From Candidatus Kaiserbacteria bacterium (lineage in GTDB: Bacteria; Patescibacteriota; Minisyncoccia; Phycocordibacterales; JABAAK01), in contig JAPPJI010000021.1 in assembly GCA_028820405.1 (NCBI GenBank), positions 2,770-66,769 on the forward strand: 64,000 nucleotides of DNA, written 5' to 3'. Below, one piece after another: positions 3,826 through 34,718 of this stretch. The notes beneath the pieces are model-generated. The model made no database searches. It saw only the letters and a list, made by a program, of their open reading frames with translations, and was not told where the DNA came from. How positions within the stretch are numbered: the stretch's first letter is position 1; each line of letters opens with the position of its first letter. A program made the translations under genes and the position numbers.

Positions 3826-5164
3826 TTCTGTTTCTATCCCGCGGGAACATAGATGCCTCTTTTGCGTTCTGCAGTCCGCAGAGTTTCGCCGTCAGCCGCT
3901 CAAGCCCCATTCCCATACCGCCGTGCGGCGGCATACCGTACCGAAACGCCTGGAGGTAGAAGGAGAACACGGTCTCAGGGTCGGCAATGCCGGTCTTTTT
4001 CGTGATCTTCTCAATAAGTGTGCTGTAGTCGTGGATACGCTGTCCGCCGGTGCTGATCTCAATCCCCCGGAACAGGAGATCAAATCCTTTGGTATATCCC
4101 GGATCATCTGCATCATCGTAGGTGTACATCGGTCGGGTTTCTGTCGGATAGTGGGTGATGAAAATGAAATCAGATCCCGTCTCTTTCTGTGCGTGCTCGC
4201 AGAGCACCCGCTCATGTTCCGGTGCAAGATCTTTCTCCCCTTCACACGATATGCCGTACTTCTCGGACAACAGGACCTGTGCCTCCGTCAGCTTCATGCT
4301 CGGAAACGGTGTCTCCGGAACGATCGGCAACGATGCCTCCAGCACTGTCAGATGGTTCTTGCACCGATCCGCAACCTGCCGCACGATGTGCCGGACACAT
4401 CCTTCAAGCATCGCCTGCACATCAGTGTGATCGGTAATGTACCCCATCTCAAAGTCCATGCTGGTGTACTCGTTGAGGTGACGGGACGTGCTGTGCTTCT
4501 CTGCACGAAAGACGTTTCCGACAGAAAACACCCGTTCAAACGCACCGACGAGAATCTGCTTGTATAGCTGCGGACTTGTCGCAAGTGATGCCCGCTTGTC
4601 AAAGTAATCAACACCGAATACCTCGGCACCGCCTTCTGCGTCACCTCCGACGATAGCCGGTGCCTGAAACTCCATGAACCCTTCCCCGGAGAGGTACTCA
4701 CGAAATGCCTGTGCAACCGACATCTGCACGCGAAAAACTGCCTGTTCACGACTTCTTCGCAGAGTCAGGGGACGATAGTCAAAGAGGGTATCGATATTGA
4801 TGTCCGCATCGCGATCAAACGGAAGGGTTTGTGCTGCTGCTGATTGAGAGAAGGAGGAGACGAGAATCTCAAGAGCACCGTTGTCCCCGTCAGACCGGTT
4901 TTTCTCAGAACGATCCTGCACCGCCCCGGTCACCATGAGAATACTCTCCGGCGTCAGCTTTTGGGCTTCAGCAAATTGCGGGTGATCCCCCTTCAGGACA
5001 CACTGCACTGATCCGGTCCTGTCGGCAAGGTCAATAAAAAGCACCTTGCCGTGGTCCCGGACAACGAGCACTTTCCCCCATACGGTCACTTCCGACCCAT
5101 TGTGCTCCCGCACCTGCCGCAACAGACATCGCTCCATATGGGCGCAGTATATCACACCGAACAC
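3800..5164 (-). CDS. aspS: aspartate--tRNA ligase, archaeal/non-discriminating type (class IIb). AsnRS cannot be fully excluded.
   Basis: 454 aa. N-terminal OB fold, FRAE...SRHLNEYT (motif 2), GGQRIH and GMPPHGGMGMGLERL (motif 3). The length fits archaeal-type AspRS. GatB is in the same window. The start may be the internal Met at 5137. Confidence 0.75.
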   Translation of the reverse strand: MFGVIYCAHMERCLLRQVREHNGSEVTVWGKVLVVRDHGKVLFIDLADRTGSVQCVLKGDHPQFAEAQKLTPESILMVTGAVQDRSEKNRSDGDNGALEILVSSFSQSAAAQTLPFDRDADINIDTLFDYRPLTLRRSREQAVFRVQMSVAQAFREYLSGEGFMEFQAPAIVGGDAEGGAEVFGVDYFDKRASLATSPQLYKQILVGAFERVFSVGNVFRAEKHSTSRHLNEYTSMDFEMGYITDHTDVQAMLEGCVRHIVRQVADRCKNHLTVLEASLPIVPETPFPSMKLTEAQVLLSEKYGISCEGEKDLAPEHERVLCEHAQKETGSDFIFITHYPTETRPMYTYDDADDPGYTKGFDLLFRGIEISTGGQRIHDYSTLIEKITKKTGIADPETVFSFYLQAFRYGMPPHGGMGMGLERLTAKLCGLQNAKEASMFPRDRNRIDVKLYDE

Positions 5165-5224
5165 TCACCGCTGTCAATGCCTGAGAACGTACCGAAAACA
5201 TCGCAACCCTGTATACTGCACAGA

Positions 5225-5821
5225 ATGGATAACCGTGTCACACTACTGGAAGATGAAATTGTCACCCGGGTACAAACGGCCCGATATATGCTCGAAAAAT
5301 TGGGAAAGCCGTGTGATTCACTGAAACTCATCAAGCTTATTGCCCTTGCTGATATCTACAAGCTACGGCTTGAGGGTGAAACGATAACGGGAGATGATTA
5401 TGTTGCCATGAAAAACGGACCCGCACCGTCCAACACTTCTAACATCATCAGGTTTAACAGTGACTATGTGGACGGCGATACACTGACGTATGCAGGAAAC
5501 TACATAGAAAAGCACAACACCACTATCTCAGCAAAAGAGGGTGACGTAGCATATGACTACCTGTCTGATTTCGATAAGAAGTGTATTGATTACGTGGTAG
5601 AGAAATATGGCAACTTATCTGCATCTGACCTCACAGACGGAAATGGCGGAGAAAACGTACATGCATTTGAGGCATGGAAGAAACATGATATTCGTGCCTT
5701 TGGTCCCGGACAGGTTGCACCGATACACATGGAAGACTTTTTTACAAATGACGGTCCGGTTCAGGTAGATGAGGCTGACATAGAACGGTCAAGAGAGAGA
5801 TACCTTCATGGCAACCTTTGA
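5225..5821 (+). CDS. Panacea-domain (DUF4065, SocA/GepA-like) putative antitoxin
   Basis: The LKLIKLIALADIYKLRLEGETITGDDYVAMKNGPAPS pattern matches the DUF4065 core (KLxKLLYxAD...G.PxxGxxxxAxxxGPV). The start was chosen at the internal ATG at 5225. The ORF track starts at 5051. Confidence 0.7.
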   Translation: MDNRVTLLEDEIVTRVQTARYMLEKLGKPCDSLKLIKLIALADIYKLRLEGETITGDDYVAMKNGPAPSNTSNIIRFNSDYVDGDTLTYAGNYIEKHNTTISAKEGDVAYDYLSDFDKKCIDYVVEKYGNLSASDLTDGNGGENVHAFEAWKKHDIRAFGPGQVAPIHMEDFFTNDGPVQVDEADIERSRERYLHGNL

Positions 5822-6221
5822 AAAACGAGACATCGCATACTATCTCAGCTCCAAAATAAAAAAGAACAAAGAAGGGAGAAAAGAGAGGCATTACCACATT
5901 TTGTGTGCTCAATTTACGGACCGCTCCGGGTATGTCTGGTTGCAGATTATCGGAACGAGCAAGGAGATAGAAAATAACAATGAAAATGTTATTGTCATTG
6001 AACCGTCTATGTGTAACGCATTCACCAAAAGAACACGGTTCAACTGTGACTATGTTTATGCAATCCAAGAAGAGGAGTTGCAAGGTGCGAGCATACGAGG
6101 TAGGGTGCCAGAAAATGTATTTGAAACCCTAAAACAGGCGATCGGGAGATCGAACAAAGTGAAGCCGATTTACAAAAAAAGGATGAACATAGTGTGCCAT
6201 GGGCACAGTACATCACGATAA
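5808..6221 (+). CDS. candidate toxin partner of the Panacea antitoxin (137 aa). Weak MazF/PemK-like pattern.
   Basis: It overlaps the upstream Panacea gene by 14 nt in a toxin-downstream arrangement. The pattern HILCAQFTDRSG...VIVIEPSM...CDYVYAIQEEEL loosely resembles the MazF/CcdB SH3-barrel layout. Inference only. Confidence 0.4.
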   Translation: MATFEKRDIAYYLSSKIKKNKEGRKERHYHILCAQFTDRSGYVWLQIIGTSKEIENNNENVIVIEPSMCNAFTKRTRFNCDYVYAIQEEELQGASIRGRVPENVFETLKQAIGRSNKVKPIYKKRMNIVCHGHSTSR

Positions 6222-15751: not shown

Positions 15752-17104
15752 TCAATAGCACTCAAGTTTTTTGAGTCCCTGGTGTGCACGAAGCTTTTCC
15801 AGTGCCCGTGCTTCAATTTGACGAACCCGCTCACGCGTAACTCCCATCTTGTTACCGATTTGCTCAAGGGTATACCGAATACCATCGTCTTGCATGCCGT
15901 GTCGCATCTCAATGACCTCTCGCTCACGGGAAGAAAGGTCTTCGAGAATGTCTTGTATCTGCTCCCGCAAGATGTCGTGAGAGACAATTGTCTCCTGCGT
16001 GTCCTGATCAACATCCTCAATGGTATCAGATATCTTTGTGTTACTCTCCTCATCATCGGAACCGCCGAGAGGCTTCTCAAGCTGCACGACCTCCTGCGTA
16101 ATACGACGAATAGTGTAGATTTTTTCAACCTCAACACCCAACTCATCAGCCACCTCCTGCACCGTCGGCACACGACCGAGGTCCTGTTCCAGTTGCACCA
16201 TCGTTTTCTTATATCGCTGTGCGGTTTCAGACATGTGCACCGGGATTCGAATCGTTCTTGACTTATCCGCCAGTCCCCGCACAATTGACTGTTTGATCCA
16301 CCACGTTGCGTAGGTGGAGAACTTGAATCCCCGCTGCGGCTCAAACTTGTCCACCGCTTTATACAGCCCTTCAACTCCCTCTTGCACGAGGTCAAGCAGG
16401 TTGAGATCACGACTTCGTCCCGCATAGTTCTTGGCAATAGAGACAACGAGACGGAGGTTTGCGGTCGCAAGCCGATGTCGTGCTTCAAGACCTTCTTCGA
16501 CAACGGTTCGCTGTGCTTTCGACAGTGCAGTGGTTTTCTTTTTCTTTTCAAGCAGTTTTTGACGTGCCATGATCTTCTCCCCGAGTTCCTGCTCTTCTGC
16601 AGCACTCAACAGGGCGTACTTTCCGATGTCCCGCAGGTACATTTGAATGGAATCGTACGAAGAGAGGTCTGTTTCCGGGAACCGACTGTCGGTTTTTAGT
16701 TTCTCTTCATGCAAAATGCCGTCACGATGCACGAGATCAATGCAGTTGTTATTGAGTATTTTCTCAATGCAGTCCCACACTTCCTTCTCATTGTCACATT
16801 CACTCGGATTAACGTGTTCAAGGATGATGTCTGACGGAACATAGCCACTCCCCTGACACTGTTTAACAAGATCTTTGATTTTTTTGCGAAACTTGGTCGG
16901 AATCACTGCATACAACTCCTTCTCTCTCTGTGCCGCAAGAATCGCTTCATCAATGTTGTCGTCCTTTTCCGCCGTTTTCTTTTTTGCAACACGCACCGCT
17001 TTCTTTACCTTCTTTTTCATTGTTTTCTTTACCGCCTTCTTCGCCCGTGTCGTCTTCTTTTTTACAGACGTTTTTTTCCGTGCAGTTTTCTTCTTGGCTG
17101 GCAT
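15752..17104 (-). CDS. rpoD: RNA polymerase sigma factor RpoD (sigma-70) with a lysine-rich N-terminal tail
   Basis: Region 2 ([35 protein letters not shown]). Regions 3 and 4 ([21 protein letters not shown]). The N-terminal ~48 aa are K/A/T-rich ([17 protein letters not shown]...). Confidence 0.9.
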
Positions 17105-17223
17105 ATGAGAGGTTTGTGCTCCCTACACAAAGTAGTGCAGAATATTGTAGCATGGTTTGAAAAACACGCAACTCGTCCTGGGGACAGGGGCAGATATACC
17201 CTGCTACTGCCTGCTCTCTTCCG

Positions 17224-18897
17224 TTACACCGCGGGTGCTCGGCTTTTTTTCACCTCCTGTCGCTTTCGAGCTTCTTGAAACAACGTACTGATTGATTTGC
17301 GCAGATCTTCTTGCACCCGAGCAGCCCGATCCTGCTTACTCAGATCAGGCATACCTTCCTCATACTTCACCACTGCCTCACTGCGAGAAACAGACGGCAA
17401 GCCCCACACAGCACATATCGTCCGCAGTGCATCCTTCTGATCTTTCTCAACTGATCCTGTCGTGCCGAGAAATGCTTGGGCACTGGCAACGATGCGCAGG
17501 TGTTTGTCGATCTTGCCGAGTTGATGTTTCGATGCAGCAGGAGTCTGGCAGACCGGAGCCGGCGTGTTCTGTATGTCAGATCGCAGTTGTTCAACCATTT
17601 CAGCCACCGCGGTGTCGGATACCCCGCAAAATGATGCCGCTTCTTTCTGCAGGTGGTCACGGGTCACGGGATTTTGCACCTTTGCAATGAGGGGAGCAAA
17701 CTGCGTCAGCACACCGCGAACCCGGTCAGCGGTATCACCGCTTGCAACCTGTGTATCAATACAATCGGTGACAAATGAAGCGACTGATTTAGCACCCCGA
17801 AACCGTGTCCGAAACTCCTCGGGATCGGCAGCAATCATATCCGCCGGATCTTTCCCGTCCGGCAGCACGACCACCTTGATATTGGTTGCATCAACACCGA
17901 TCGTAATTGCCATTTCAATCACCCGAAGTGTCGCCCGCTTCCCTGCACCGTCACCGTCGAGGGCAAGAATGAGACGGCCGCCCGAGAGTCGCTGCATTGT
18001 TTCGAGATGTTCGGTGGTAACGGCGGTTCCGGATGTTGCAACGGTCATCGGATACCCGGCCTGGTGCATGAGGATAGCATCAACCGGTCCTTCGGTGAGG
18101 ACAACGACACTTTGGCGACGAATTTCCTGTTTTGCACGATGCAATCCGTACAGAAACGTTGATTTGTTGAACAGCGGCGGCTGCATGGTCTCCGGCGAGT
18201 TGATGTACTTCGCCGTTTCTTTTTCACCGTATGCCCGCCCGGAAAATCCGATGATACGATTATTATCATGGAACGGAAACAGAACCCGTCCCCGGAAAAA
18301 GTCAAAGTGACGACCTCTCCTTTGTACGCAAAGACCTGCTTTGACATACTGTTCAAGTTCCTTTTTCGTCCGATTCTCAGTCACAGTCCGCCACGAATCC
18401 GGTGCAAACCCGATGCCCCACGCAGTAATTGACGCTTCACTGATACCGCGCCCGGTGAGGTACGATCGAACGTCATCGGTGAGCAGTTCCTGATAGAGTG
18501 AGGCGGTTGACGCAAGGATGTCATACAGACTATCCGTGTCATTCCGGCGTCTCGTCGGATGATTACCAAGTTCAATGCCTGCCTGCTGCGCAAGGATAGC
18601 GAGAGCTCCCTTGAAATCAACCCCTTCAACTTCCTGCACAAAGGAAAAGATATCTCCCCCTTTTTGTGATGAGAAGCAGTAGTACACGCCGTCTTCCGGA
18701 TCAACGTAAAAAGAGGGGGTTTTTTCGTTCGTAAAAGGAGAGAGCCCCTTCATTCGTTTACCAGAGGGAACGAGATTGGTGTATGGAGAAATGACGTCAA
18801 CGATATCAATGACCTCCTTTATTTGTCGCACCTCGTCACCTCGAGCGGCGTGAGGGCGTTGTGAGGCACACATCAATTGCATCGTATCCCAAAGCAA
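17224..18897 (-). CDS. dnaG: DNA primase
   Basis: N-terminal zinc-ribbon-like region and Toprim domain (LTEGPVDAILMHQAGY...LALDGDGAG). dnaG-rpoD operon order. Confidence 0.85.
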   Translation of the reverse strand: MLWDTMQLMCASQRPHAARGDEVRQIKEVIDIVDVISPYTNLVPSGKRMKGLSPFTNEKTPSFYVDPEDGVYYCFSSQKGGDIFSFVQEVEGVDFKGALAILAQQAGIELGNHPTRRRNDTDSLYDILASTASLYQELLTDDVRSYLTGRGISEASITAWGIGFAPDSWRTVTENRTKKELEQYVKAGLCVQRRGRHFDFFRGRVLFPFHDNNRIIGFSGRAYGEKETAKYINSPETMQPPLFNKSTFLYGLHRAKQEIRRQSVVVLTEGPVDAILMHQAGYPMTVATSGTAVTTEHLETMQRLSGGRLILALDGDGAGKRATLRVIEMAITIGVDATNIKVVVLPDGKDPADMIAADPEEFRTRFRGAKSVASFVTDCIDTQVASGDTADRVRGVLTQFAPLIAKVQNPVTRDHLQKEAASFCGVSDTAVAEMVEQLRSDIQNTPAPVCQTPAASKHQLGKIDKHLRIVASAQAFLGTTGSVEKDQKDALRTICAVWGLPSVSRSEAVVKYEEGMPDLSKQDRAARVQEDLRKSISTLFQEARKRQEVKKSRAPAV

Positions 18898-18962
18898 TCA
18901 AGAGATATATCCTGTCATATGTGCACTTTGTGGATAGTGTGGAAAACCTCAGACCTGCTCCC

Positions 18963-18974
18963 CTCACCCCCTAA
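18963..18974. repeat. left copy of a ~12-bp imperfect direct repeat (CTCACCCCCTAA) flanking the AT-rich island
   Basis: Seen in the sequence. The right copy CTCACCCCCCTA lies at 22641-22652. Each copy overlaps the stop codon of a minus-strand gene (KAP NTPase, rpoC). Confidence 0.3.
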
Positions 18975-20346
18975 CACTTGGTATGCTATCACCATGAAAT
19001 TCCTCAATGTATAAAAGCAATACATCCTTGAATGTTTTTAGAACCTCTCCTTCGTGTATTACATCACCTCCCTTTATGCTTAATTCTCCTTCACGAACGA
19101 CCAACCCTTCAATGTGCCTACCTTTAAGCAAACGTGGCAGAAATGGTGCCTTGTGGGACAGGTTTACTGCTGACACAATGAACTTACAGTGGTCTCTCAA
19201 ACCATCAAACATATCACTCTGACCATATTTATTATCAACTATGGGTTCACAATCGTTAGAAAGAGATTGCTTTATAGCGTCAACTAAAGCTTTCTTTGAT
19301 CCGACAGTCTTTATTAAAAAAGACACAGTTCTTTTCATGGGTCTTCCGTATTCCCTCTCTTCAATCATAGAGAACCCTGAACTATTTCTTTTTTGTGAAT
19401 ACTGTAGCGTCCCCAACCCATTGAGGACCTGTCGCAAGTTTATGATATTTTTTCTGAAGAAGTTTTTCAAAAGGAATAATGACAACCAGACACTTATATA
19501 TTGACCTGTTTTATCTGTCACTTGTTTATTTGGTTGTGGGCCAAAAACGGTACCCATATATTCAGCAATAATACCTTTCGGGTCATACTCAAAAACTTCC
19601 TTGCTGTAAAATTTATCAAGATACCCTTGTGAATCTGTGCCAGCACCATATTTGTGGTGAAAGATTGATCGTAGGTTATTATAGTCCGCTACAAAAATTA
19701 CGTGATCAAAACCAAGCCTTTTAGCAACTGTCTTCTCCTCATCCTCGCCAACAAATAAAGAAAATACATTAAATAGTCTGAAAATATGTTCGGGATCAAG
19801 TCGATCCATATCATCAATAACCAAAACTTTCTTCTTTTCTTTCCCCGCAACTTTGCACAACATTTTTCTGATTTTTTCTTCAGTAATCGTCCCAAAAGAT
19901 TCTTTTATCTCTTCAATCGCAGCAACTATGAAATTCGCAATTGGATTGACCCTCCCCAGCAAAGATGCGGTTTTCCACCCTATCTTTACCAACTTTTTCA
20001 TTTTTGATTTTTCCTTGTGCCCTGACAAGGGTCCTTTTTCTCCACCTTGTTCCATAATAGATATCATCAAGTCTTCCTTCATGGTTTCTATCAGTACCTC
20101 ACTTCCCACTATTTGATAAGCTGTGGGGCGAAGACGTACCCAAAAGTAATATTCCTCATACTGCTTAAAAAACCTCTCGATAAAAAACGTCTTCCCTATA
20201 CCAAATTTGCCAGAAAACAAGATTCTACTGTTTCTCAACATCTCCAAATGATGTTTAAAATGATCAAACAAGGGATCTATCGGTATTATCATACCGCTTC
20301 CAACCAACCCGTCTTGGGATTCTTTAGGATCTTTTGTTACATCCAT
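18964..20346 (-). CDS. KAP-family P-loop NTPase
   Basis: Walker A SGKFGIGKTFF. The Walker B context KVLVIDDMDRLDPEHIF matches the KAP signature (hhhhIDDLDRxxP). AT-rich codon usage unlike the flanking genes. Confidence 0.7.
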   Translation of the reverse strand: MDVTKDPKESQDGLVGSGMIIPIDPLFDHFKHHLEMLRNSRILFSGKFGIGKTFFIERFFKQYEEYYFWVRLRPTAYQIVGSEVLIETMKEDLMISIMEQGGEKGPLSGHKEKSKMKKLVKIGWKTASLLGRVNPIANFIVAAIEEIKESFGTITEEKIRKMLCKVAGKEKKKVLVIDDMDRLDPEHIFRLFNVFSLFVGEDEEKTVAKRLGFDHVIFVADYNNLRSIFHHKYGAGTDSQGYLDKFYSKEVFEYDPKGIIAEYMGTVFGPQPNKQVTDKTGQYISVWLSLFLLKNFFRKNIINLRQVLNGLGTLQYSQKRNSSGFSMIEEREYGRPMKRTVSFLIKTVGSKKALVDAIKQSLSNDCEPIVDNKYGQSDMFDGLRDHCKFIVSAVNLSHKAPFLPRLLKGRHIEGLVVREGELSIKGGDVIHEGEVLKTFKDVLLLYIEEFHGDSIPSVRG

Positions 20347-20461
20347 ACACTAATCACATGATAGTGTAATAACGATATGGAGCACAAGTCAAGACATTGA
20401 CCGACAGTTTCCGATCACTATTCATTTGTAGCCGTGCAAGGAGGTTATACTGAATATAAGC

Positions 20462-21541
20462 ATGGTCACCAAAAGCCTAAACAAGGGATTGCATACTGCA
20501 AAGAGAGAAAAGAAAGATGAGTTCTATACCCAACTTACTGATATTGAAAAAGAGCTGAAACATTACAAAGATCAGTTTCGTAATAAAGTTGTGTATTGTA
20601 ATTGCGATGACCCTTATGAAAGTAATTTTTTTAAATATTTTTCTCTCAGTTTCAACCACTTGGGGTTAAAAAAGCTTATCACCACGAGTTACAAACCATC
20701 ACCAATTACTGGCAAACAATTGCCTTTGGTTGAAATTGAAGGATTAAAGCCAGAAGGCAAAGAACCTTTCAAACTTGAGATCAATGAAGTTTTAGACAAT
20801 AACAAAGATGGTGCTGTTGACTTAACAGATGTTGAGTGGCTATTGAAGAATGATGCGAACACCGCCACACCACTTGATAGTGACGGTGATTTTCGCAGTG
20901 AAGAATGTGTAGAATTTCTCAAAGAAGCAGATGTTGTTGTAACGAACCCTCCTTTTTCACTTTTTCGCGAGTACCTTGCTCAGTTGATGGAGTATGATAA
21001 GAAGTTTTTAATCATTGGAAACATCAACGCCATCACGTACAAAGAGACATTTCCGTTAATCCAGAAAAACAAGGTATGGCTTGGAGTAAGCATCCATAGC
21101 GGAGATCGTGAATTCAGAGTTCCTGACCACTACCCTCTAGAGGCTGCCGGGTATCGTGTTGATGACGAAGGCAACAAATACATTCGCATAAAAGGTGTTC
21201 GATGGTTTACAAATCTTGACACAGAAAAGCGGCACGAAAGTCTTGTTTTGTACAAGAAGTACACCCCCGAGGAGTTTCCAAAATATGACAACTATGATGC
21301 CATAAATGTAAATAAAACCTCTGACATCCCGATGGATTATGCTGATGCAATGGGTGTGCCGATCACTTTTTTGGACAAACACAACCCCGATCAATTTGAG
21401 ATAGTAAATTCAAATAATGTAAGGTTAAGCGAAAAAGTTCCGACCAAAGACTCGGGACTTATCAAAGACAAAGAAAGTGCAATAAACGGCAAGCCGACCT
21501 ATGTTCGAGTTGTCATAAAAAACAAGGAGGTGACAAAATAA
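20462..21541 (+). CDS. N6-adenine DNA methyltransferase, M.EcoRI-like (EcoRI_methylase family)
   Basis: The SDEFYTQ N-terminal motif, VVYCNCDDP, FFKYFSLxFxxLGLKKLI, VVTNPPFSLFREYL (NPPF motif IV), DKKFLIIGNINAITYKE and YPKYDNYDAINVNKTxDIP are all as recalled for M.EcoRI. AT-rich. Confidence 0.8.
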   Translation: MVTKSLNKGLHTAKREKKDEFYTQLTDIEKELKHYKDQFRNKVVYCNCDDPYESNFFKYFSLSFNHLGLKKLITTSYKPSPITGKQLPLVEIEGLKPEGKEPFKLEINEVLDNNKDGAVDLTDVEWLLKNDANTATPLDSDGDFRSEECVEFLKEADVVVTNPPFSLFREYLAQLMEYDKKFLIIGNINAITYKETFPLIQKNKVWLGVSIHSGDREFRVPDHYPLEAAGYRVDDEGNKYIRIKGVRWFTNLDTEKRHESLVLYKKYTPEEFPKYDNYDAINVNKTSDIPMDYADAMGVPITFLDKHNPDQFEIVNSNNVRLSEKVPTKDSGLIKDKESAINGKPTYVRVVIKNKEVTK

Positions 21542-21542
21542 C

Positions 21543-22637
21543 ATGAAAATAGAACTCAAAAGAATTCCTGTTCGTGAGGCAGTTAATGGCTACAAAGATA
21601 ATGCCGAGGAGGGTGTTACGGCATACGGCGGCAAACTTGATGTTCGCCCAAAATACCAACGCGAGTTTGTTTATGACGACAGACAGCGTGATGCGGTAAT
21701 TGAAACAATCAAACAAGATTTTCCGCTTAATGTGATGTACTGGATGACAAAAGATGACGGAATTAATTACGAAATGATTGACGGTCAACAGCGAACTATC
21801 AGTATTGGTCAGTATGTGAGTGGTAATTTTGCACTTGCTAATCGTTTTTTCTATAACCTCACAAAAGAAGAGCAGAATCAGATCCTTGACTACGAGCTCA
21901 TGATTTACTTCTGCGAAGGAACAGACAAAGAACGTTTAGATTGGTTTAAGGTTATCAACATCGCCGGTGAAAAACTGACCGATCAAGAAATACGGAATGC
22001 GGTATATACCGGACCATGGCTTTCTGATGCAAAATTGAAATTCAGTAAAACGAGCTGTGCAGCGTACAAATTAGCAAACGACGGAGGAACACTTTTGAAC
22101 GGTGAATTAAACAGACAGCACTACCTAGAAACCGCCCTCTCTTGGATTAATCATGGAGAAATAGATGGTTACATGGCAAAGCATCAGCACGAACCAAACG
22201 CAAACAACCTATGGAGTTACTTTCAAGATGTGATCATGTGGGTTCGCAAGACATTCCCAAAATATCGAAAAGAAATGAGAGGTGTGAATTGGGGCGGGCT
22301 GCACAACGAATCTAAAGACAAAAAATTGGATGCTGAGAAACTAGAAACTGAGGTTGCTCAATTAATGCAAGATGAAGATGTAACAAGAAGGTCGGGCATT
22401 TACCCTTATGTCCTCACAAGAGATGAGAGACACCTCCAAATACGTGCGTTTACCGACAACATGAAACGAGAAGTATATGAGGAACAAGAGGGAATCTGCA
22501 AAAAATGTGAAGAACAATTCCCATTCGAAGAAATGGAGGCTGACCACATTAAGCCGTGGCACGAAGGCGGCAAAACGACCTCAGAAAATTGTCAGATGTT
22601 GTGCAAGGATTGCAATCGGAGAAAATCCGGAAAATAA
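21543..22637 (+). CDS. DUF262 (ParB/Srx-like, DGQQR motif) + C-terminal HNH nuclease fusion (COG1479/GmrSD-related)
   Basis: YQREFVY and IDGQQRTISIGQY DUF262 signatures. C-terminal CKKCEEQ...ADHIKPWHEGGKTTSENCQMLCKDCNRRK is a canonical zinc-finger HNH. The start codon lies 1 nt after the MTase stop. Confidence 0.8.
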   Translation: MKIELKRIPVREAVNGYKDNAEEGVTAYGGKLDVRPKYQREFVYDDRQRDAVIETIKQDFPLNVMYWMTKDDGINYEMIDGQQRTISIGQYVSGNFALANRFFYNLTKEEQNQILDYELMIYFCEGTDKERLDWFKVINIAGEKLTDQEIRNAVYTGPWLSDAKLKFSKTSCAAYKLANDGGTLLNGELNRQHYLETALSWINHGEIDGYMAKHQHEPNANNLWSYFQDVIMWVRKTFPKYRKEMRGVNWGGLHNESKDKKLDAEKLETEVAQLMQDEDVTRRSGIYPYVLTRDERHLQIRAFTDNMKREVYEEQEGICKKCEEQFPFEEMEADHIKPWHEGGKTTSENCQMLCKDCNRRKSGK

Positions 22638-22640
22638 CAA

Positions 22641-22652
22641 CTCACCCCCCTA
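22641..22652. repeat. right copy of the ~12-bp imperfect direct repeat (CTCACCCCCCTA) flanking the island
   Basis: See the left copy at 18963-18974. Confidence 0.3.
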
Positions 22653-25600
22653 CTCCGCCTCTTTCTCTGCTTCCGCTTCTTCAAGACGGCGTTGCACGTC
22701 TTCACTTATCTTCCGAACAATATCATGCTTCTTGCTCCCTTCAAAACCGCTGCCAACCGGCACCAGGCGACCGATGATCACGTTTTCTTTCACACCGTCA
22801 AGGGTATCCTTTGATCCGCTGATAGCAGCCCTGATGAGAACACTGGTTGTGTTCTGGAACGACGCTGAAGAGAGAAAATTACTCCGGGACACCGACACGT
22901 TGGTGATACCGGTCACAATATGCTCCGCCTCCATGACATGTTTCTTTGCCGTTTTCAGCTCTTCATTTGCTTCAATAAATTCACTCAAATCAATAACCTC
23001 ACCGGCAGTATAGATACCGTCACCGGAATCAGTGATCCGAAGCCGGCTGAACATTTGACGGATGATAATTTCAAAATGTATTGATGCGGTACCCACTCCC
23101 TGCAGTTCGTAGACCTTTGAAACCTCGCTCAAAATGTACTCCTGTGTCGCCTCCTTCCCGCAGTACTGCAGCATCTCCTCAAGGTCCGCTGATCCGTCAG
23201 TGAGAAACTGTCCTTTCGTTACTTCATCGCCGACTGCAACCGAAAGCGTTCGAATCGGAGAAACAGAATAACTCTTGTCCGCAGCTGCAACCCGTTTCGC
23301 ACCGACGTTGAGATAAATTGTTCGACTTCCGTCGCTGTGTTCTTCAATCTGCTCAATCGTCCCGTCAGCGTGAGCGATAACTGCCGGCACTTTCGGTGCC
23401 CGTCGTTCAAAGAGCTCGGTCACCCGCGGCAGTCCTGAGGTAATGTCACCGCCGGCCTGAGCGACACCGCCGGCGTGGAAGGTTCGAAGCGTTAGCTGCG
23501 TACCCGGCTCTCCGACCGACTGTGCGGCAATGGTTCCGACCGCTTCACCGAGATCAACAATCTCACCCGTTGTTCGGTCTTCGCCGTAGCACTTCGCACA
23601 CACGCCGCGTGCATGCAGGCAGGTAATCGGTGATCGCACCCGTATCTTGTCAACAGACTCATGCTTTTCAATAGTTCGTGCCAGGTCGCGATCGATAAAG
23701 TCCCCTTTCTTTGCAACCGCTTTCCCCTTGTCACCAACAACGTCTTCGGAGAGGAATCGTCCCCGAATACGGTCACTGAACGAGTCTCCCGCTCCCGATT
23801 CTGTTTCCCGGTAGAGGTTGAACCCTTTTGTCGTACCGCAGTCGTCTCCGTCAATCCGAATCTCCTGTGCAACGCTGAAGAGCTTTCGTGAGAGGAACCC
23901 CGCATCCGCCGTCTTAAGAGCGGTGTCAGCGGCACCCTTTCTCGCACCGAATGACGCATTGAAGTACTCAATAGACTTCATACCGTCTTTCAGTGACGAA
24001 ATAACCGGCTGCTCAATCGGCTCACCTGATGCCGAGTCAACGACACCGAACATCGCCGTCATGTCACCGAGGTCATCAAAGGAGCCACGGGCACCGGATT
24101 GGATCATTTTTCCGACCGGGGAATCTGTCAGCACCTCATCCCGTGCCCGCTGACTGAGATCGCCTTTCACGTCAAGCCACAGGTCAATGTTCTTTCGCTT
24201 TCTCTCCTGGAGAGAGATGGTCCCCTCGTTATACGCATCCATAACCTCCTGTGATTTCTTGAACCCTTCCTGGATGATCGAATCACGATTGCCCGGGCAA
24301 CGAAGGTCTTCCCATGAAAAGGTCACGCCGGATGCCATTGCATATTTGAAACCGAAGTCCTTGATGAGGTCAAGGTGGTCAACAAGCACCTGGCGACCGA
24401 GGGTATCAAAAATGTCTCTCGTAACCTGTTTGAGCATCTTCTTGTCAATAGCGTCGTTAATGTACGGATACTCCTTCGGCAGTGTCATATTGAACAGCAG
24501 GCGGCCTACCGTTGTCTCAAACATCGTTCCCCGATGCTCACCGTACTTCTCTTTGTCAGAAGCGAGCACTTTTATCTTCGATCGAATCCCGACAATGCCG
24601 TAGTCACTCGCGCTAATCGCTTCATTTATGTTTGCAAAATACTTCCCTTCCCCGTGACCGCCTTCTTCAATCTCTGTTGCCCAGTAACAGCCGAGAACGA
24701 TGTCCTGCTCCGCCGGCGTTATGTTAATCTCACCCGATGCCGGTGAGACAACATTCATAGAAGATGCAAGGATGTTCTTTGCCTCTGCCTGTGCCTCCTC
24801 AGAAAGCGGCAGGTGCACCACAACCGCATCACCGTCGAAGTCTGCGTTGTACGGCGTACACACGAGCGGGTGAAACTCAATGGCAAGTCCTTCGGTGAGG
24901 ATCGGCCGAAACGCCTGAATACTCTGCCGGTGCAGTGTCGGTGCCCGATTCAGGAGCATATACTTTCCGACAATAACTTTTTCTAATATCTCCCACACAA
25001 CGGGCTCACGTGAATCAATGAGCCGCTGTGCGCCCCGAATATTGAAGGCAAGGTCACGATCAAAAATCTCCCCGATAATGAACGGCTTGAATATTTCCAG
25101 TGCCATTGTCTTCGGCAGACCGAACTCATCGAGTTTCAGGTGCTGACCGACGACAATAACTGAACGGCCGACAAAGTCAACGCGTTTTCCGAGCAGGTTC
25201 AGTCGGAAGTACCCGGTCTTTCCGCCGAGGTACTCTGATATCGGCTTCAGCTGCCGTGACTGACCGCGACCGCCGGTTGACGGTGCACCGCGACCCGTGC
25301 TCTTCTCAAAGAGCGCGTCAACTGATTCCTGTAAAAGTCGTTTTTGCGTGTTGACAAAGATTGCCGGTGCCTTTGACTCACGAAACTCTTTCAGACGGTT
25401 GTTTCGAACAATGATGTGGCGATAGAGGTCATTGAGGTCGGAACTTGCGTAGCGACCGCCGTCAAGCTGCACAATCGGTCGTATACCCGGAGGAATAACC
25501 GGAAGCACGGTCACGAACATCCACTCCGGTCTGTTTCCCGACTGGATAAATGATCGGATAATGAGCAGCTGCCGCTGCAGCCGTTCCTGCTGCCCTTTGT

Positions 25601-26339
25601 TCGCTGTCTCAAGGTCACGGAGCACCTCCCGTTCTTTCTTCTCAAGATCAATGTCCTTCAGCAAGTTGTAGATAACCTCTCCGCCTTTCTCCGCTTTGAA
25701 AAGATCGGGAAATGACCGCTTCAGCTGATCATGCCGAACGCCGTCAATAATTATTCCGGGCTGCACCGAGTCAAGGTCATTGACACGGGTCTCGTACAGG
25801 ATATTCAGCATCTCACGCGTCTCCTCCTGACCGGCTTTTTGCAGTTTTTCATCAAACTCTTTCTTAATACTCTTGTGCAACTTTTTCCGATCACCCTCAT
25901 CAACGTCAAGCACGTAGTACGAAGAGTAGTAGACAACGTTTTGCACCTGCTGAGCGGGGAGACCGAGGAGCATTGCAACCCGTGACGGCACCTTACGGAG
26001 ATACCACGGGTGTGCAACCGGCGTCGCAAGCTCAATGTGTCCCATCCGCTCACGCCGCACCAGTGCCCGTGTCACCTCAACGCCACAGTTTGAGCACGTG
26101 ATGCCCTGGTATTGATTCCCCTTATACTTCCCACAGCTACACTGAAAGTCATGCTCGGGACCGAAGATTTTTTCGCAAAAGAGTCCGTCACGCTCTGACC
26201 GTTGGGTACGGTAATTGATGGTTTCTGACTTCGTCACTTCGCCAAATGACCACGACTGGATCTCATCAGGCGACGCGAGCCGCAAGTTGAGGTGATCAAA
26301 GTTTTGTGTCTTTCGTATTGTTTTTTTACTATCCTGCAT
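22650..26339 (-). CDS. rpoC: DNA-directed RNA polymerase subunit beta'
   Basis: 1229 aa. Zinc-binding CxxC N-terminus, NADFDGD catalytic loop, trigger-loop/bridge-helix regions. Confidence 0.97.
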   Translation of the reverse strand: MQDSKKTIRKTQNFDHLNLRLASPDEIQSWSFGEVTKSETINYRTQRSERDGLFCEKIFGPEHDFQCSCGKYKGNQYQGITCSNCGVEVTRALVRRERMGHIELATPVAHPWYLRKVPSRVAMLLGLPAQQVQNVVYYSSYYVLDVDEGDRKKLHKSIKKEFDEKLQKAGQEETREMLNILYETRVNDLDSVQPGIIIDGVRHDQLKRSFPDLFKAEKGGEVIYNLLKDIDLEKKEREVLRDLETANKGQQERLQRQLLIIRSFIQSGNRPEWMFVTVLPVIPPGIRPIVQLDGGRYASSDLNDLYRHIIVRNNRLKEFRESKAPAIFVNTQKRLLQESVDALFEKSTGRGAPSTGGRGQSRQLKPISEYLGGKTGYFRLNLLGKRVDFVGRSVIVVGQHLKLDEFGLPKTMALEIFKPFIIGEIFDRDLAFNIRGAQRLIDSREPVVWEILEKVIVGKYMLLNRAPTLHRQSIQAFRPILTEGLAIEFHPLVCTPYNADFDGDAVVVHLPLSEEAQAEAKNILASSMNVVSPASGEINITPAEQDIVLGCYWATEIEEGGHGEGKYFANINEAISASDYGIVGIRSKIKVLASDKEKYGEHRGTMFETTVGRLLFNMTLPKEYPYINDAIDKKMLKQVTRDIFDTLGRQVLVDHLDLIKDFGFKYAMASGVTFSWEDLRCPGNRDSIIQEGFKKSQEVMDAYNEGTISLQERKRKNIDLWLDVKGDLSQRARDEVLTDSPVGKMIQSGARGSFDDLGDMTAMFGVVDSASGEPIEQPVISSLKDGMKSIEYFNASFGARKGAADTALKTADAGFLSRKLFSVAQEIRIDGDDCGTTKGFNLYRETESGAGDSFSDRIRGRFLSEDVVGDKGKAVAKKGDFIDRDLARTIEKHESVDKIRVRSPITCLHARGVCAKCYGEDRTTGEIVDLGEAVGTIAAQSVGEPGTQLTLRTFHAGGVAQAGGDITSGLPRVTELFERRAPKVPAVIAHADGTIEQIEEHSDGSRTIYLNVGAKRVAAADKSYSVSPIRTLSVAVGDEVTKGQFLTDGSADLEEMLQYCGKEATQEYILSEVSKVYELQGVGTASIHFEIIIRQMFSRLRITDSGDGIYTAGEVIDLSEFIEANEELKTAKKHVMEAEHIVTGITNVSVSRSNFLSSASFQNTTSVLIRAAISGSKDTLDGVKENVIIGRLVPVGSGFEGSKKHDIVRKISEDVQRRLEEAEAEKEAE

Positions 26340-26342
26340 ACG

Positions 26343-29300
26343 CTATGTGTACTGTATTTTATCAACCGGACCCGGCTCCTTCTGATCATCCGCCGTGTCA
26401 AGCGTCACGTTCAAGCCGAGACCGCGAAGGTAGTAGAGGAGAACGTTGAATGCTGCCGGCGTCCCCGTCTGCACGATCGGCTTCTTTCTGATAATGGCGT
26501 TGTACGCTATGTTTCGCCCATGCATGTCGTCTGACTTGATAGTCAGCATCTCACGCAGCGTGTGTGCTGCACCGTGACCGAGCAGGGCCCACACTTCCAT
26601 CTCTCCGAGCCGGCCTCCGCCGAACCGAGACCGCCCGCCCGGCGGCTGTTGTGTGATGAGGGAGTACCGACCGGTTGATCGGGCGTGCACCTTGTCTTGC
26701 ACCATGTGCTCCAGCTTCAGTGTGTACACCCAACCGATCGAAACGTCACCGGCAAACCGATCTCCCGTCTTGCCGTCGTAGAGGTCAACTTGACCGCTCT
26801 CCGGATATCCCGCCTCAACGAGCTCGTTCCGAAGTTCATCCTCGGTGATAGAGGTCATCGGCGGTACAATCGCCTGGTATCCCTGTGCATGTGCGGCAAG
26901 ACCGAGGTGCATCTCAAGCACCTGTCCGATGTTCTTTCGGGACGGCACACCAAGTGATGACAGGATAATGTCAATCGGCTCACCGTCACTGGTAAACGGC
27001 ATGTCTTCAATCGGTGCAATACGGGAAATGACCCCCTTGTTTCCATACCGATTTGCCAGCTTGTCACCCACCTTCACACGACGCAAATCAGCGACAATAA
27101 TGTGCACCTGTTTCAGAACACCCATGTCAATCATGTGATCACTTTCGCGGTCACGAACCTGAACAGACACCACCTTCCCCTGCTCTCCCGGCGGAAGTGT
27201 CTTTGAGGTGTCCCGCATATCCTTCGCCTTGTCACCAAAGATGGAGAGGAGCAGGTGCTCTTCGGCTGACATCTGCATCTCACCGCGCGGGGTGAGCTTT
27301 CCGACAAGGATATCGCCGGGAACGACCTCCGATCCGACGCGAATCACGCCGTCAAGACCCAGGTTGCGGAGTTTGCGTTCGGGAACATTCGGAATATCAG
27401 CTGTCATCACGTCAGGACCGAGCTTGGTCTCCCGAACATCAACAACATGCTCCTTCACCTGTATGGAGGTAAGCACGTCATCGTGTACCAGCCGCTCAGA
27501 GACAATGATCGCATCGTTGAAAGTGCTGTCATACGGCAGAAAGGCGACCCGAAGGTTTTTCCCGACAGCAATACTCCCGTCAACCGTTGATGCTATGTCA
27601 GCAAGCACATCACCTTTCTTCACCTTGTCACCGAGAGAAACAGACGGTCGCTGGTGATTTGCAAAGGTGTACGCGGATCCTGCAAGTTTGAACACCTCAA
27701 GATCGTAGCGCTTGGTATCGTTCCTTGACTTCACTGCGATATGCTTCGCGTCAACAGAGACAACCTCACCGTCTTCCTCGGCAACCATGAGCCGACCGGA
27801 TGACCGTGCAAACGCTTCCTCGTAGCCGGTTGCAATCAACGGCTTCTCCGGCCGAAGACAAGGAATTGCCTGTTGTTGCATGCGGGTACCGGTTGCAGAA
27901 CGATACGGAATGGTGTTACTTGCAAACGGCACAAGTGCGGATGCGATGGAGAGGATCTGACCGGTCGCCGCGTCAACATAGTCAACTTCCTGCGGTGACA
28001 CCCGATCATACTGACCGTCATGCCGAACAAGGACCGTTTCCTGCGTGATGCTTCCCTTTCCGTCAGTCTCCACGTCAGCCCCTGCAATTTTGTACCGCTC
28101 ATCTTCTGCCGCGGTCATGAATGCAATCTCATCAGTCACCTTTCCTCCTTTCACCACGTTGTACGGACACTCAAGCAACCCATACTCATTAATACGGGCA
28201 TACAGAGCAAGGTGCAGTACGAGACCGATGTTTCCCCGTTCCGGCGTGTTGATCGGACAGATGCGCCCGTAATGGGTGCGGTGTACGTCACGGACTGAGA
28301 CATTTGCGTGCTCACGGGTCACACCACCGGCACCAAGTGCGGAAATTGTTCTGAGGTGCTCCAACTGGTCAAGGACGTTCTGCTGTTTGAGTGTCTGCGA
28401 GAGCTGATCAGTATTGAAAAATCCGTGAATAGTCGACTGAAAGGTCCTGAGGTTGATAACGTTTGTCGGCAGCTCAAGCAGTTTCGGATCCTGCGTCAAC
28501 ATCTTATCACGCACATTCTTACGTACCCGAATAAATCCGGTGCGTGCATGCTCGTAGACCAGCTCACCGACAGACCGAATGCGACGAAATCCGAGATGGT
28601 CAATATCATCCCCCTCAGCACCCGGCGTGTTGTTCAGCCGCACGATCTCTTTCACGATGACAACGATGTCCTCAAGGTTGAGCACAAGGTTATCCTTCGT
28701 CTCTTCGGTAATGGGCAGGCTAAACCGTTTATTAAAATTAATACGGCCAATCTCACTGATGTTGTACCACTCCGGTGAGAACCGTGACTGCACCATCTCC
28801 TTCGCCCGCTCAGGACTCACGACACTGCCTGACCGGAGCACCTTGTAAAAGGCGAGCCACACCTCATCCATCGTCGTTGCAGTGTCATCGGCAAAACTCT
28901 GCTCTATTGATTTGTGTGCCGCCGGATCGTCTGCAAAAAGTTTCAGCACATCAGCCTGCGTCTCCGGACCGAACGCACGGATAAAGGTGGTGATCGGCAG
29001 CCGTCGTGAACTCTGGTCAACACGGACTGAGACGAGACCGTTTACATCACTCTCAAACACGAGCCAGATACCCTTCCCTTTCTGCGGCACAACCTGTGCA
29101 CCGAAGGTGTCACGGGTTTTCCGCTTCGTCTCTTTGAAAAATCGGATTCCCTGAGAACGAATCAGCTGTGATACGATGGTTCGCTCAACACCGTTGATGA
29201 TGAACGATCGCTGCGGTGTCATCATAGGGATGTCTCCGAAGAGCACCTCCTCTTCGACAACCCGCTTTGTCACCGTATTATTGAGGTGCAGCACAACACG

Positions 29301-29558
29301 GAGGGGGGCGGTGTAACTGGTAAAGGATTCTTTTGCTTTCTGCGGCGAGAGACGGGGTTCCTCAAGGCGGTGGGAGACAAAGGAAATCTTGTACCGATTG
29401 TTTGAATCCTCAATCGGAAAAAACTCTTCAAACAGGCTCTTCAAACCTGCATCAAGAAACGTGCCGTACGACTCTTCCTGAAATGCAAGAATGTCGTTCA
29501 GCGGAAATGACGGCTCTTTGTATCGCGAAAATGTCTTTTTTGGTCTGGCGGTATCCAT
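26343..29558 (-). CDS. rpoB: DNA-directed RNA polymerase subunit beta
   Basis: 1071 aa. Conserved beta regions (GRHGNKGVISRI-like GNKGVISRIAP, fork and clamp segments). Immediately upstream of rpoC. Confidence 0.97.
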   Translation of the reverse strand: MDTARPKKTFSRYKEPSFPLNDILAFQEESYGTFLDAGLKSLFEEFFPIEDSNNRYKISFVSHRLEEPRLSPQKAKESFTSYTAPLRVVLHLNNTVTKRVVEEEVLFGDIPMMTPQRSFIINGVERTIVSQLIRSQGIRFFKETKRKTRDTFGAQVVPQKGKGIWLVFESDVNGLVSVRVDQSSRRLPITTFIRAFGPETQADVLKLFADDPAAHKSIEQSFADDTATTMDEVWLAFYKVLRSGSVVSPERAKEMVQSRFSPEWYNISEIGRINFNKRFSLPITEETKDNLVLNLEDIVVIVKEIVRLNNTPGAEGDDIDHLGFRRIRSVGELVYEHARTGFIRVRKNVRDKMLTQDPKLLELPTNVINLRTFQSTIHGFFNTDQLSQTLKQQNVLDQLEHLRTISALGAGGVTREHANVSVRDVHRTHYGRICPINTPERGNIGLVLHLALYARINEYGLLECPYNVVKGGKVTDEIAFMTAAEDERYKIAGADVETDGKGSITQETVLVRHDGQYDRVSPQEVDYVDAATGQILSIASALVPFASNTIPYRSATGTRMQQQAIPCLRPEKPLIATGYEEAFARSSGRLMVAEEDGEVVSVDAKHIAVKSRNDTKRYDLEVFKLAGSAYTFANHQRPSVSLGDKVKKGDVLADIASTVDGSIAVGKNLRVAFLPYDSTFNDAIIVSERLVHDDVLTSIQVKEHVVDVRETKLGPDVMTADIPNVPERKLRNLGLDGVIRVGSEVVPGDILVGKLTPRGEMQMSAEEHLLLSIFGDKAKDMRDTSKTLPPGEQGKVVSVQVRDRESDHMIDMGVLKQVHIIVADLRRVKVGDKLANRYGNKGVISRIAPIEDMPFTSDGEPIDIILSSLGVPSRKNIGQVLEMHLGLAAHAQGYQAIVPPMTSITEDELRNELVEAGYPESGQVDLYDGKTGDRFAGDVSIGWVYTLKLEHMVQDKVHARSTGRYSLITQQPPGGRSRFGGGRLGEMEVWALLGHGAAHTLREMLTIKSDDMHGRNIAYNAIIRKKPIVQTGTPAAFNVLLYYLRGLGLNVTLDTADDQKEPGPVDKIQYT

Positions 29559-33918: not shown

Positions 33919-34587
33919 CTACAACTCCTTTGTCAAACCGAGCATCGCAGCGACGTCTTCTCCGGAACGGACAACCTGTGCACCCCGGGCAATGAGACTG
34001 TTCGTCCCCGCACCGGTTGCGGAAAAGATATCATGCGGCACCGCCCCGAGCTCCCGGTTGTATTCAACTGCAAGGTGAGCCGTTATCTGCGTGCCTGCAC
34101 GCTCTGCACATTCAACGGCAACAACTGCACTTGAGATGCCGACGATAATACGGTTTCTTGCAGGGAATGCCGACTTCGTCGCCGGCGTGTCCGGTGAAAG
34201 TTCTGAGAGGAGCGTGCCTCCTGCCGCAAGCATTCGCTCTGTGAGTGCACGGTTCCGTTTCGGATACAGAACGGTATCAGCAAGACCGGATCCGGGAATT
34301 GCAATGGTCGGAATATCTGCTTGCAGGGCCGCCTCGTGCGCAACCGTATCAAGACCGATGGCGAGACCGGAGACGATCGTCACCCGGTACGGCGTGAGAC
34401 CGGAGACAATGTGTTCACAAACCCGCTTTCCGTACGGAGAGTGCACCCTTGCACCGACAACGGCAATCAGATGGCGGGACCAGTCCGGCTCTCTGCCCCG
34501 GAGGTACAGCTGCTGTGGCGGATGCGGAATCTCTCGCAGCGGCAGCGGATACGCATGCCTCGGTATCGTCTGAATCGGATGTTCCAT
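33919..34587 (-). CDS. dprA: DNA-processing protein A (Smf), short form
   Basis: Rossmann-like DprA core (IAVVGARVHSPYGKRV...IVSGLAIGLDTVAHEAAL...TIAIPGSGL...PARNRIIVGIS). The start is set at 34587, immediately 3' of tRNA-Pro, to avoid overlapping it. Confidence 0.75.
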   Translation of the reverse strand: MEHPIQTIPRHAYPLPLREIPHPPQQLYLRGREPDWSRHLIAVVGARVHSPYGKRVCEHIVSGLTPYRVTIVSGLAIGLDTVAHEAALQADIPTIAIPGSGLADTVLYPKRNRALTERMLAAGGTLLSELSPDTPATKSAFPARNRIIVGISSAVVAVECAERAGTQITAHLAVEYNRELGAVPHDIFSATGAGTNSLIARGAQVVRSGEDVAAMLGLTKEL

Positions 34588-34588
34588 G

Positions 34589-34660
34589 TCGGACTGCCGG
34601 GAATCGAACCCGGACCACACGCACCCCATGCGTGCACACTACCACTATGCTACAGTCCGA
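34589..34660 (-). tRNA. tRNA-Pro (anticodon GGG), no encoded CCA
   Basis: Manual fold. Acceptor CGGACTG/CAGTCCG, anticodon stem CACGC/GCGTG, loop AUGGGGU and T-arm CCGGG-TTCGATT-CCCGG. 72 nt. Confidence 0.75.
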
Positions 34661-34718
34661 TACATGGTCAGTATACCGATACGAACAGGACAACACATGG
34701 TATCTTGAGGATATAGGT

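Follow-up and report, generated by a model that had tools for sequence, protein, structure and literature searches.

The proposal that NTPases of the KAP family are conflict proteins dates back twenty years. PifA of the F plasmid, a founding member, mediates exclusion of phage T7. Membrane helices, either two or four, are tied to the NTPase domain in every eukaryotic KAP protein and in some of the bacterial ones. RdrA, the ATPase of RADAR, is a larger protein of about 800-900 amino acids (aa) whose partner is the adenosine deaminase RdrB. PifA has long been known, but for other KAP genes protection by a single gene has been shown only recently: in Enterococcus, individual genes that join a KAP NTPase to a C-terminal region of unknown function confer phage protection, this protection requires both the Walker B motif and the C-terminal region, and EF_KAP, the sole protein tested at different multiplicities of infection, does not act by abortive infection (PLoS Biol 2026, PMC13552941). 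Tmn and YobI represent a related P-loop clade with single-gene defense, and Tmn carries two membrane helices within its P-loop domain (PMC13001434). Here, we analyze a KAP-type gene located in a 64-kb stretch of DNA from a Candidatus Kaiserbacteria genome (64,000 nucleotides, henceforth termed the window). We consider it most likely, at a probability of roughly 55%, that its product is a soluble, stand-alone NTPase acting as a single polypeptide against phages or mobile elements, and that the gene is a passenger in an imported defense island.

An open reading frame (ORF) with an ATG start codon occupies 18964-20346 of the minus strand and specifies a protein of 460 aa. An identical 460-aa protein from Candidatus Kaiserbacteria is on public record under the name 'P-loop NTPase fold protein' (P0001), and the same locus and protein were called in a second assembly (L093). 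The Pfam model KAP_NTPase (PF07693) matches residues 41-249 (19600-20226, minus strand) with E=1.4e-13, and at 51.2 bits, where the gathering score is 20, the match is far beyond chance; generic AAA models of Pfam score lower on the same protein. This conserved motor domain contains the Walker A motif GKFGIGKT (residues 46-53; 20188-20211, minus strand), which conforms to the family pattern GxxGxGK[ST], and the Walker B motif with its extension VIDDMDRLDPEHIF (residues 176-189; 19780-19821, minus strand), within which VLVIDDMDRLDPEHIF shows the hhhhDD signature followed by the conserved D-R segment. The protein adopts the AAA+/STAND-like alpha/beta core fold in a structure model with a pTM of 0.75, for which RdrA is the closest solved fold and further similarity extends to TnsC, MuB and the ORC/Cdc6 loaders. 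The gene therefore encodes a KAP-type P-loop NTPase, as a first-pass annotation had read from the two motifs, both of which are encoded as it described, and the Pfam match above the gathering score bears out that assignment.

The remaining residues 250-460 (18967-19599, minus strand) form a variable, all-helical C-terminal region. No recognisable domain and no structural match were returned for this half of the protein, and domain and fold searches of the full sequence revealed no nuclease, protease or pore that could serve as an effector. NCBIfam and PHROGs searches likewise gave no informative family, and a sequence search of the family profile described below against PDB chains yielded nothing below E=0.15. 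Hydropathy analysis in 19-residue windows detected no membrane helix; since the highest Kyte-Doolittle mean is 1.29, we regard the protein as soluble. PifA, too, is a KAP-type NTPase without membrane helices, which shows that such helices are not universal in the family (PMC13001434), and their absence here is therefore compatible with KAP membership.

Comparison with characterized systems places the protein near several of them and within none. It can be likened, by architecture and genomic context only, to EF_KAP and three gut-metagenome proteins described in the same study, with which it shares an N-terminal KAP NTPase, a C-terminal stretch of 200-300 residues without known domain, and location in a defense island. 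EF_KAP was, however, modelled with two membrane helices that the window protein lacks, and genes of the EF_KAP class lie beside small serine recombinases, whereas the island studied here contains no recombinase (PMC13552941). Using PADLOC, we obtained a PifA match with E=0.0036 over residues 119-189 of the window protein. This partial match, weak and covering about 70 residues of a model of 720 positions rather than its full length, led us to reject identity with PifA; the C-terminal parts are unrelated, and PifA is plasmid-borne while the family of the window protein is chromosomal. A second PADLOC match, to PDC-S20 (E=1.9e-6), covers about 80-90 residues around Walker B (residues 158-247). 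The PDC-S20 models, with 450-464 positions, are similar in length to the 460-aa protein, and across the 46 family members introduced below PDC-S20 is matched by 38 (best E=3.4e-12) and PifA by 13. PDC-S20 is a PADLOC candidate of which our literature search found no mention, and judged by these partial alignments the window protein would be at best a distant relative of it.

The structural likeness to RdrA corresponds to 13-14% sequence identity and an alignment of the N-terminal half only. RADAR was rejected as an assignment given the length of 460 aa and a gene neighborhood consisting of dnaG and a methylase, with no RdrB. Tmn/YobI was rejected as well: a membrane helix is missing, PADLOC reports no Tmn match, and the YobI-ATPase model of Pfam reaches only 18.8 bits (cut-off 27), with the match confined to the Walker B extension.

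To place the protein within the superfamily, we collected 686 homologs from 5.8 billion proteins. Nearly all are 460-500 aa long, the best non-identical one shares 41% identity, and most of those listed carry a precomputed PF07693 match. A family profile built from 46 members and run against 1.84 billion cluster representatives matched 1,832 clusters at E<=1e-3, of which 1,366 remained at E<=1e-30, indicating a compact and well-separated family rather than the KAP superfamily as a whole. Its members belong mainly to Bacteroidota and Patescibacteria; other phyla contribute a few, and a DPANN archaeon contributes one. In the alignment of the 46 members, G49, G51 and K52 of Walker A, the Asp-Asp pair of Walker B (D178 and D179) and the residues R182, P185, F189, R190 and N193 are invariant, and an arginine at position 305 is nearly so. 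Conservation is distributed in blocks: mean pairwise identity amounts to 58% in residues 20-100 and 64% in residues 171-250, which constitute the NTPase core, compared with 27% in the insert that separates the two Walker motifs (residues 101-170) and 27% and 22% in the C-terminal half (residues 251-330 and 331-460, respectively).

The genomic setting of the gene points to import as part of a larger unit. Together with a methylase and a nuclease gene, it forms a 3.7-kb block that splits an rpoB-rpoC-dnaG-rpoD cluster. The GC contents of the KAP, methylase and nuclease genes are 0.378, 0.387 and 0.416, against 0.48-0.535 for the flanking rpoD, dnaG, rpoC and rpoB. In three relatives, whose DnaG proteins are 72%, 68% and 56% identical to that of the window, dnaG and rpoD come directly after rpoC, the spacers measuring 0-76 bp, and the three-gene block is therefore an insertion. 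Both lines of evidence agree with the first-pass description of the gene as embedded in an island, which is low in GC and horizontally acquired. A metagenome search with DnaG recovered only relatives of 30-34% identity, which were uninformative for the junction. The insertion point can be located by a conserved element of the rpoC-dnaG spacer, GGTTTTCCACACTATCCACA (18929-18948, minus strand), which is unique in the window and lies just downstream of the island. This element follows the rpoC stop codon immediately in one relative (L095) and after 2 nt in another (L094), and in the window it is found 15 nt past the KAP stop codon, placing the insertion at most about 24 nt from the rpoC stop.

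At the island borders we observed a 9-bp direct repeat, CTCACCCCC, whose left copy (18963-18971, plus strand) contains the KAP stop codon and whose right copy (22641-22649, plus strand) lies between the stop codons of the nuclease gene and rpoC. These are the only two occurrences of the 9-mer on either strand of the window, and the estimated chance of an exact 9-mer being shared between two 120-nt windows is about 5%. The repeat hints at a target duplication or at recombination between microhomologies without constituting proof. According to work attributed to Furuta and Kobayashi, restriction-modification (R-M) units reportedly insert with short target duplications, and by analogy the island may represent such an event. 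Neither an integrase nor a transposase was found among the island's ORFs and their Pfam matches, and direct reading of the island ends showed no terminal inverted repeats. All three genes, KAP and the two of the R-M pair, thus entered this genome as one block.

That the KAP stop codon falls inside the border repeat raises the question of whether the gene is a decaying remnant that resembles a pseudogene, is no longer active and merely travelled with a functional R-M cassette. Since the stop codon belongs to the repeat, insertion may have altered the extreme C-terminus, and a segment of about 37 alignment columns that is common to most of the 46 members is missing from the protein. Aravind et al. 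(2004) also reportedly noted a tendency of prokaryotic KAP genes towards disruption. Decay is nonetheless highly improbable. The missing segment is also absent from the nearest relatives P0003, P0005 and P0007 and is therefore a subfamily trait, the 460-aa product has full family length (420-550 aa) with the closest homologs covering 98% of it, all invariant catalytic residues are intact, and the structure model is confident.

The two genes inserted with the KAP gene were assigned with high significance. An EcoRI-like N6-adenine DNA methyltransferase is encoded at 20462-21541 on the plus strand (Pfam EcoRI_methylase, E=1.9e-151; PADLOC MTase_II, 2.9e-128), and a restriction endonuclease combining DUF262 (GmrSD_N) and HNH domains in Pfam follows at 21543-22637 on the same strand (PADLOC REase_II, 2.1e-130), starting 1 nt past the methylase stop codon. 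Both PADLOC matches extend over the full protein length and classify the pair as methylase and restriction enzyme of type II. The divergent orientation of the KAP gene relative to this operon and the 115-bp spacer between them (20347-20461) are as the first-pass annotation had described. It had taken this arrangement to suggest co-regulation through the spacer and had proposed that the KAP protein could be a sensor or effector partner of the R-M pair, two ideas that the data do not support.

With regard to regulation, the spacer holds one weak promoter-like site on the minus strand (TTGACT-18-TACACT, 20392-20363, 9/12 matches) and none on the plus strand, and the 11 promoter-like sites of the whole region do not exceed chance (8.3 +- 3.1 in shuffled sequences). 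An imperfect palindrome, ACACTAATCACATGATAGTGT, read directly from the sequence at 20347-20367, abuts the KAP start codon. No helix-turn-helix (HTH) controller gene is encoded at this locus, although some relatives of the methylase-nuclease cassette have one, and an Rfam scan of the island detected no RNA family. Among the cassette relatives, DNA similarity begins only about five codons inside the methylase gene; the spacer itself is not conserved.

For the question of partnership, we compared loci of three of the closest homologs and 80 loci drawn from one genome per species, 79 loci of which carry a family ORF that is intact and 420-550 aa long. BLASTP of the window methylase and nuclease against all ORFs within +-10 kb of the family genes in these 79 loci gave no match at 1e-5. 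The 551 proteins encoded within four genes of the family members fall into 434 clusters, and a universal partner is therefore lacking. Viewed from the other side, the nuclease recurs in more than 120 clusters at 74-79% identity, compared with 41% for the nearest KAP relative. In all four cassette relatives examined (nuclease 76-79% identical), the methylase gene lies close upstream of the nuclease gene; two of the four contain an HTH controller, in one an additional gene separates methylase from nuclease, and none has a divergent KAP gene. One of them (L088) does encode a family member, 33% identical to the window protein, which is located 2.4 kb downstream with another small R-M pair in between, in a defense cluster after dnaK-dnaJ; the closest KAP homolog likewise follows dnaK-dnaJ. 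Conserved co-occurrence with DUF262-HNH or EcoRI_methylase genes, whose absence had been named beforehand as evidence against the partnership, is thus found in 0 of 79 loci and 0 of 4 cassette relatives. Together with the unconserved spacer, these counts leave a dedicated three-gene system or a shared operator without support. The R-M pair is best explained as a separate, highly conserved mobile cassette that functions without the KAP protein.

A generic link between the family and R-M systems is, by contrast to this specific pairing, real. Among 74 upstream neighbor ORFs, Pfam identified nine N6_Mtase proteins (four with HsdM_N and five of the MmeI type) and two Methylase_S proteins; among 74 downstream neighbors, it identified five Methylase_S proteins, one N6_Mtase and one EcoO109I nuclease. 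A PADLOC scan of the adjacent ORFs agrees with these counts. A single Abi_2 protein, not an R-M component, also occurs among the 74 downstream neighbors. Control ORFs at +-7 genes in the same loci (n=98, median distance 7 kb) included one N6_Mtase and one Dam-type methylase. R-M components therefore account for about 18 of 148 immediate neighbors (about 12%) versus 2 of 98 controls (2%), a roughly six-fold enrichment (Fisher p=0.004). In six loci (L021, L024, L032, L043, L056 and L082), a single strand carries hsdM, KAP, hsdS and hsdR in this order. The reading frames of KAP and hsdS touch or overlap in every one of the six (+10 to -25 nt). The same holds for KAP and the methylase ORF upstream of it in four loci, the exceptions being L024 with a 1.6-kb gap and L043 with an extra ORF in between. 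KAP adjoins hsdM or hsdS in three more loci (L047, L069 and L066), so that six to nine of the 79 other family members are located in a type I R-M operon. Type I loci occupy at least four separate places in a neighbor-joining tree computed without support values. A generic form of the proposed link to R-M genes is accordingly upheld for the family, across several R-M types and sometimes inside type I operons, and the specific partnership with the pair in the window is not supported.

This enrichment feeds the main rival to stand-alone defense, in which the KAP protein would be an accessory or guard that monitors or regulates R-M complexes and that is paired here with the adjacent type II system. 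Such a guard would fire, for example, when a phage anti-restriction protein disables the R-M enzyme, as PrrC does for EcoprrI. The overlapping ORFs of the type I-embedded loci, their scatter over the tree, the five members that follow an MmeI-type enzyme and the joint acquisition of KAP and R-M genes in the window all fit this proposal, as does the observation that genes embedded in type I operons are often defense genes (bioRxiv 10.1101/2024.01.29.577857; PMC11411939). Type I embedding is, however, also found for systems that act independently (PMC11411939), and an adjoining R-M gene is missing from about four fifths of the 79 loci. The neighboring R-M types moreover differ (type I, IIG and II), which makes a common physical interaction hard to picture. 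For the window in particular, the gene diverges from an operon whose methylase and nuclease recur at none of the 79 loci and whose close relatives lack a divergent KAP gene, and the spacer contains no conserved or significant control element. We therefore regard the guard function as unlikely for this protein, while the type I-embedded members hint that at least some of the family may work with R-M enzymes rather than independently.

PrrC offers a precedent, as it also places an N-terminal NTPase before a C-terminal module, an organization shared by the KAP family, some members of which reside in type I operons. The PrrC NTPase is nevertheless of the ABC type and that of the window protein of the KAP type, and family and fold searches found no anticodon-nuclease domain in the latter. 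A PrrC-type guard was rejected for the window gene, which diverges from a type II pair instead of lying inside a type I operon. A broader version, in which the soluble KAP family as a whole would supply a general companion NTPase of R-M systems that binds to methylase or specificity subunits or detects when phage anti-restriction proteins inhibit them, strikes us as a long shot. If true, it would provide a second line of defense like that of PrrC for EcoprrI, and it would explain the repeated and seemingly independent embedding between hsdM and hsdS, the adjacency to MmeI-type enzymes and the co-transfer with the type II pair.

Outside the R-M context, the neighborhoods are mixed. Most neighbors in the 79 loci are housekeeping genes, with synteny at the level of clades, e.g., with methylmalonyl-CoA mutase in Prolixibacteraceae. 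Defense and toxin genes are nevertheless frequent nearby, among them Abi_2: close homologs adjoin genes for DpnI, an EcoO109I R-M pair, Zeta toxin, Fic and SocA_Panacea, and in Segatella copri a distant relative has a NACHT protein and a helicase as neighbors. The housekeeping majority would suit a protein without any role in defense, namely a cellular or mobile-element NTPase for complex assembly, remodelling or island maintenance that hitch-hikes with the R-M cassette. The fold likeness to TnsC, MuB and the ORC/Cdc6 loaders and the failure to find an effector domain are in line with such a function, and since the island encodes neither integrase nor transposase, something else must, on this proposal, have moved or fixed it. 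We nevertheless judge a non-defense role to be quite unlikely. The patchy distribution over Bacteroidota, Patescibacteria and a DPANN archaeon without conserved synteny is typical of accessory genes, the fast-evolving parts resemble sensor modules, and the family shows enrichment in the vicinity of R-M, toxin-antitoxin and Abi genes. A phage collection of 50,697 records contains no family member and a plasmid collection only two weak matches, and the family is related to PifA and PDC-S20. In addition, similar KAP fusions have been shown to defend their hosts (PMC13552941).

If the protein acts as a stand-alone defense NTPase, its parts suggest how it might do so. The conserved core, with Walker A, the Asp-Asp pair of Walker B and the invariant Arg and Asn residues, would bind and hydrolyze ATP and serve as a switch or motor. 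The two fast-evolving modules, namely the insert separating the Walker motifs and the helical region of about 210 residues at the C-terminus, could provide target recognition and output. Nucleotide-dependent oligomerization is probable by analogy with RdrA, STAND and AAA+ proteins. The three genes would have been assembled in a defense island of a donor and then arrived as one 3.7-kb block directly after the rpoC stop codon, which would explain why the KAP gene adjoins the R-M pair.

For the window, the outcome is mostly corrective: the R-M pair is an independent mobile cassette, and its adjacency to the KAP gene most likely reflects the assembly of a defense island. The family, a compact, membrane-free group of KAP NTPases that is common in Bacteroidota and in the tiny genomes of Patescibacteria, represents a tractable candidate for studying the function of the KAP motor. 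Its recurrent embedding in type I R-M operons is a testable hint of cooperation with restriction enzymes and the most promising lead to emerge from this analysis.

In the window, the rpoB-rpoC-dnaG-rpoD cluster is split by a block of three genes (18963-22649, with flanks spanning 15752-29558) that encode a KAP-family P-loop NTPase, an EcoRI-like methylase and a DUF262-HNH nuclease. The same cluster is contiguous in three related genomes (loci L094, L095 and L096). Since insertion, rpoC and the nuclease gene have been convergent, with 12 nt between their stops. Read-through from rpoC, if any, would run antisense across the restriction-modification genes and would next reach a sense orientation through the KAP gene to dnaG; a search of the minus strand 3' of rpoC in the window found no terminator-like site.

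The rpoC-dnaG spacer carries a conserved element, GGTTTTCCACACTATCCACA, which is kept in this spacer across three Kaiserbacteria-like genomes (window 18929-18948, minus strand; L095 2618-2637; L094 about 3354-3373). Part of it, CTATCCACA, which in the L094 counterpart reads TTATCCACA, resembles the DnaA-box consensus. The element may act as a regulatory site of dnaG-rpoD. A partial inverted copy, TGCGGTTTTCCACCCTATC, lies within the KAP ORF (19966-19984, plus strand) and is complementary to 18933-18951 at 17 of 19 positions. Its 13-nt core occurs at only two sites in the window, one in the KAP ORF and the other in the dnaG spacer, and two matches were reached in 1 of 100 shuffles. This inverted copy could be a chance occurrence.

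The methylase-nuclease cassette (20462-22637; relatives at loci L084-L088) combines unusually high conservation with broad spread: more than 120 clusters were found at 74-79% identity, all 8,000 scored candidates fell at E<1e-20, and the source names comprise Patescibacteria, Deltaproteobacteria and Bacteroidales. Among the copies at L084-L088, some have an HTH controller upstream, and one carries a T5orf172/MUG113 gene between methylase and nuclease.

Elsewhere in the window, a SocA_Panacea antitoxin domain marks a 256-aa ORF that runs into the start of a 137-aa ORF, for which a Pfam scan gave no match (5051-6221, plus strand). The two, which are probably a toxin-antitoxin pair, occupy a lower-GC stretch with an aminoacyl-tRNA synthetase gene on either side. 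A 636-aa ORF (34449-36359, plus strand), encoded opposite to most genes and assigned to no family by a Pfam scan, has dprA and the tRNA gene at 34589-34659 as neighbours; the AT skew is positive in this region.

At other loci with KAP-family members, a second conserved ORF, some 380-390 aa long, recurs (L024 12588-13766; L043 9482-10627; L062 6133-7266), and in two of the type I operons with an embedded KAP gene it sits between hsdS and hsdR. Directly downstream of dnaK-dnaJ, two Patescibacteria contigs carry a defence gene cluster with a KAP-family member (L001 5143-9419; L088 1-10038), and the presence of such KAP-containing clusters in both suggests that the region 3' of dnaK-dnaJ is a recurrent insertion hotspot.
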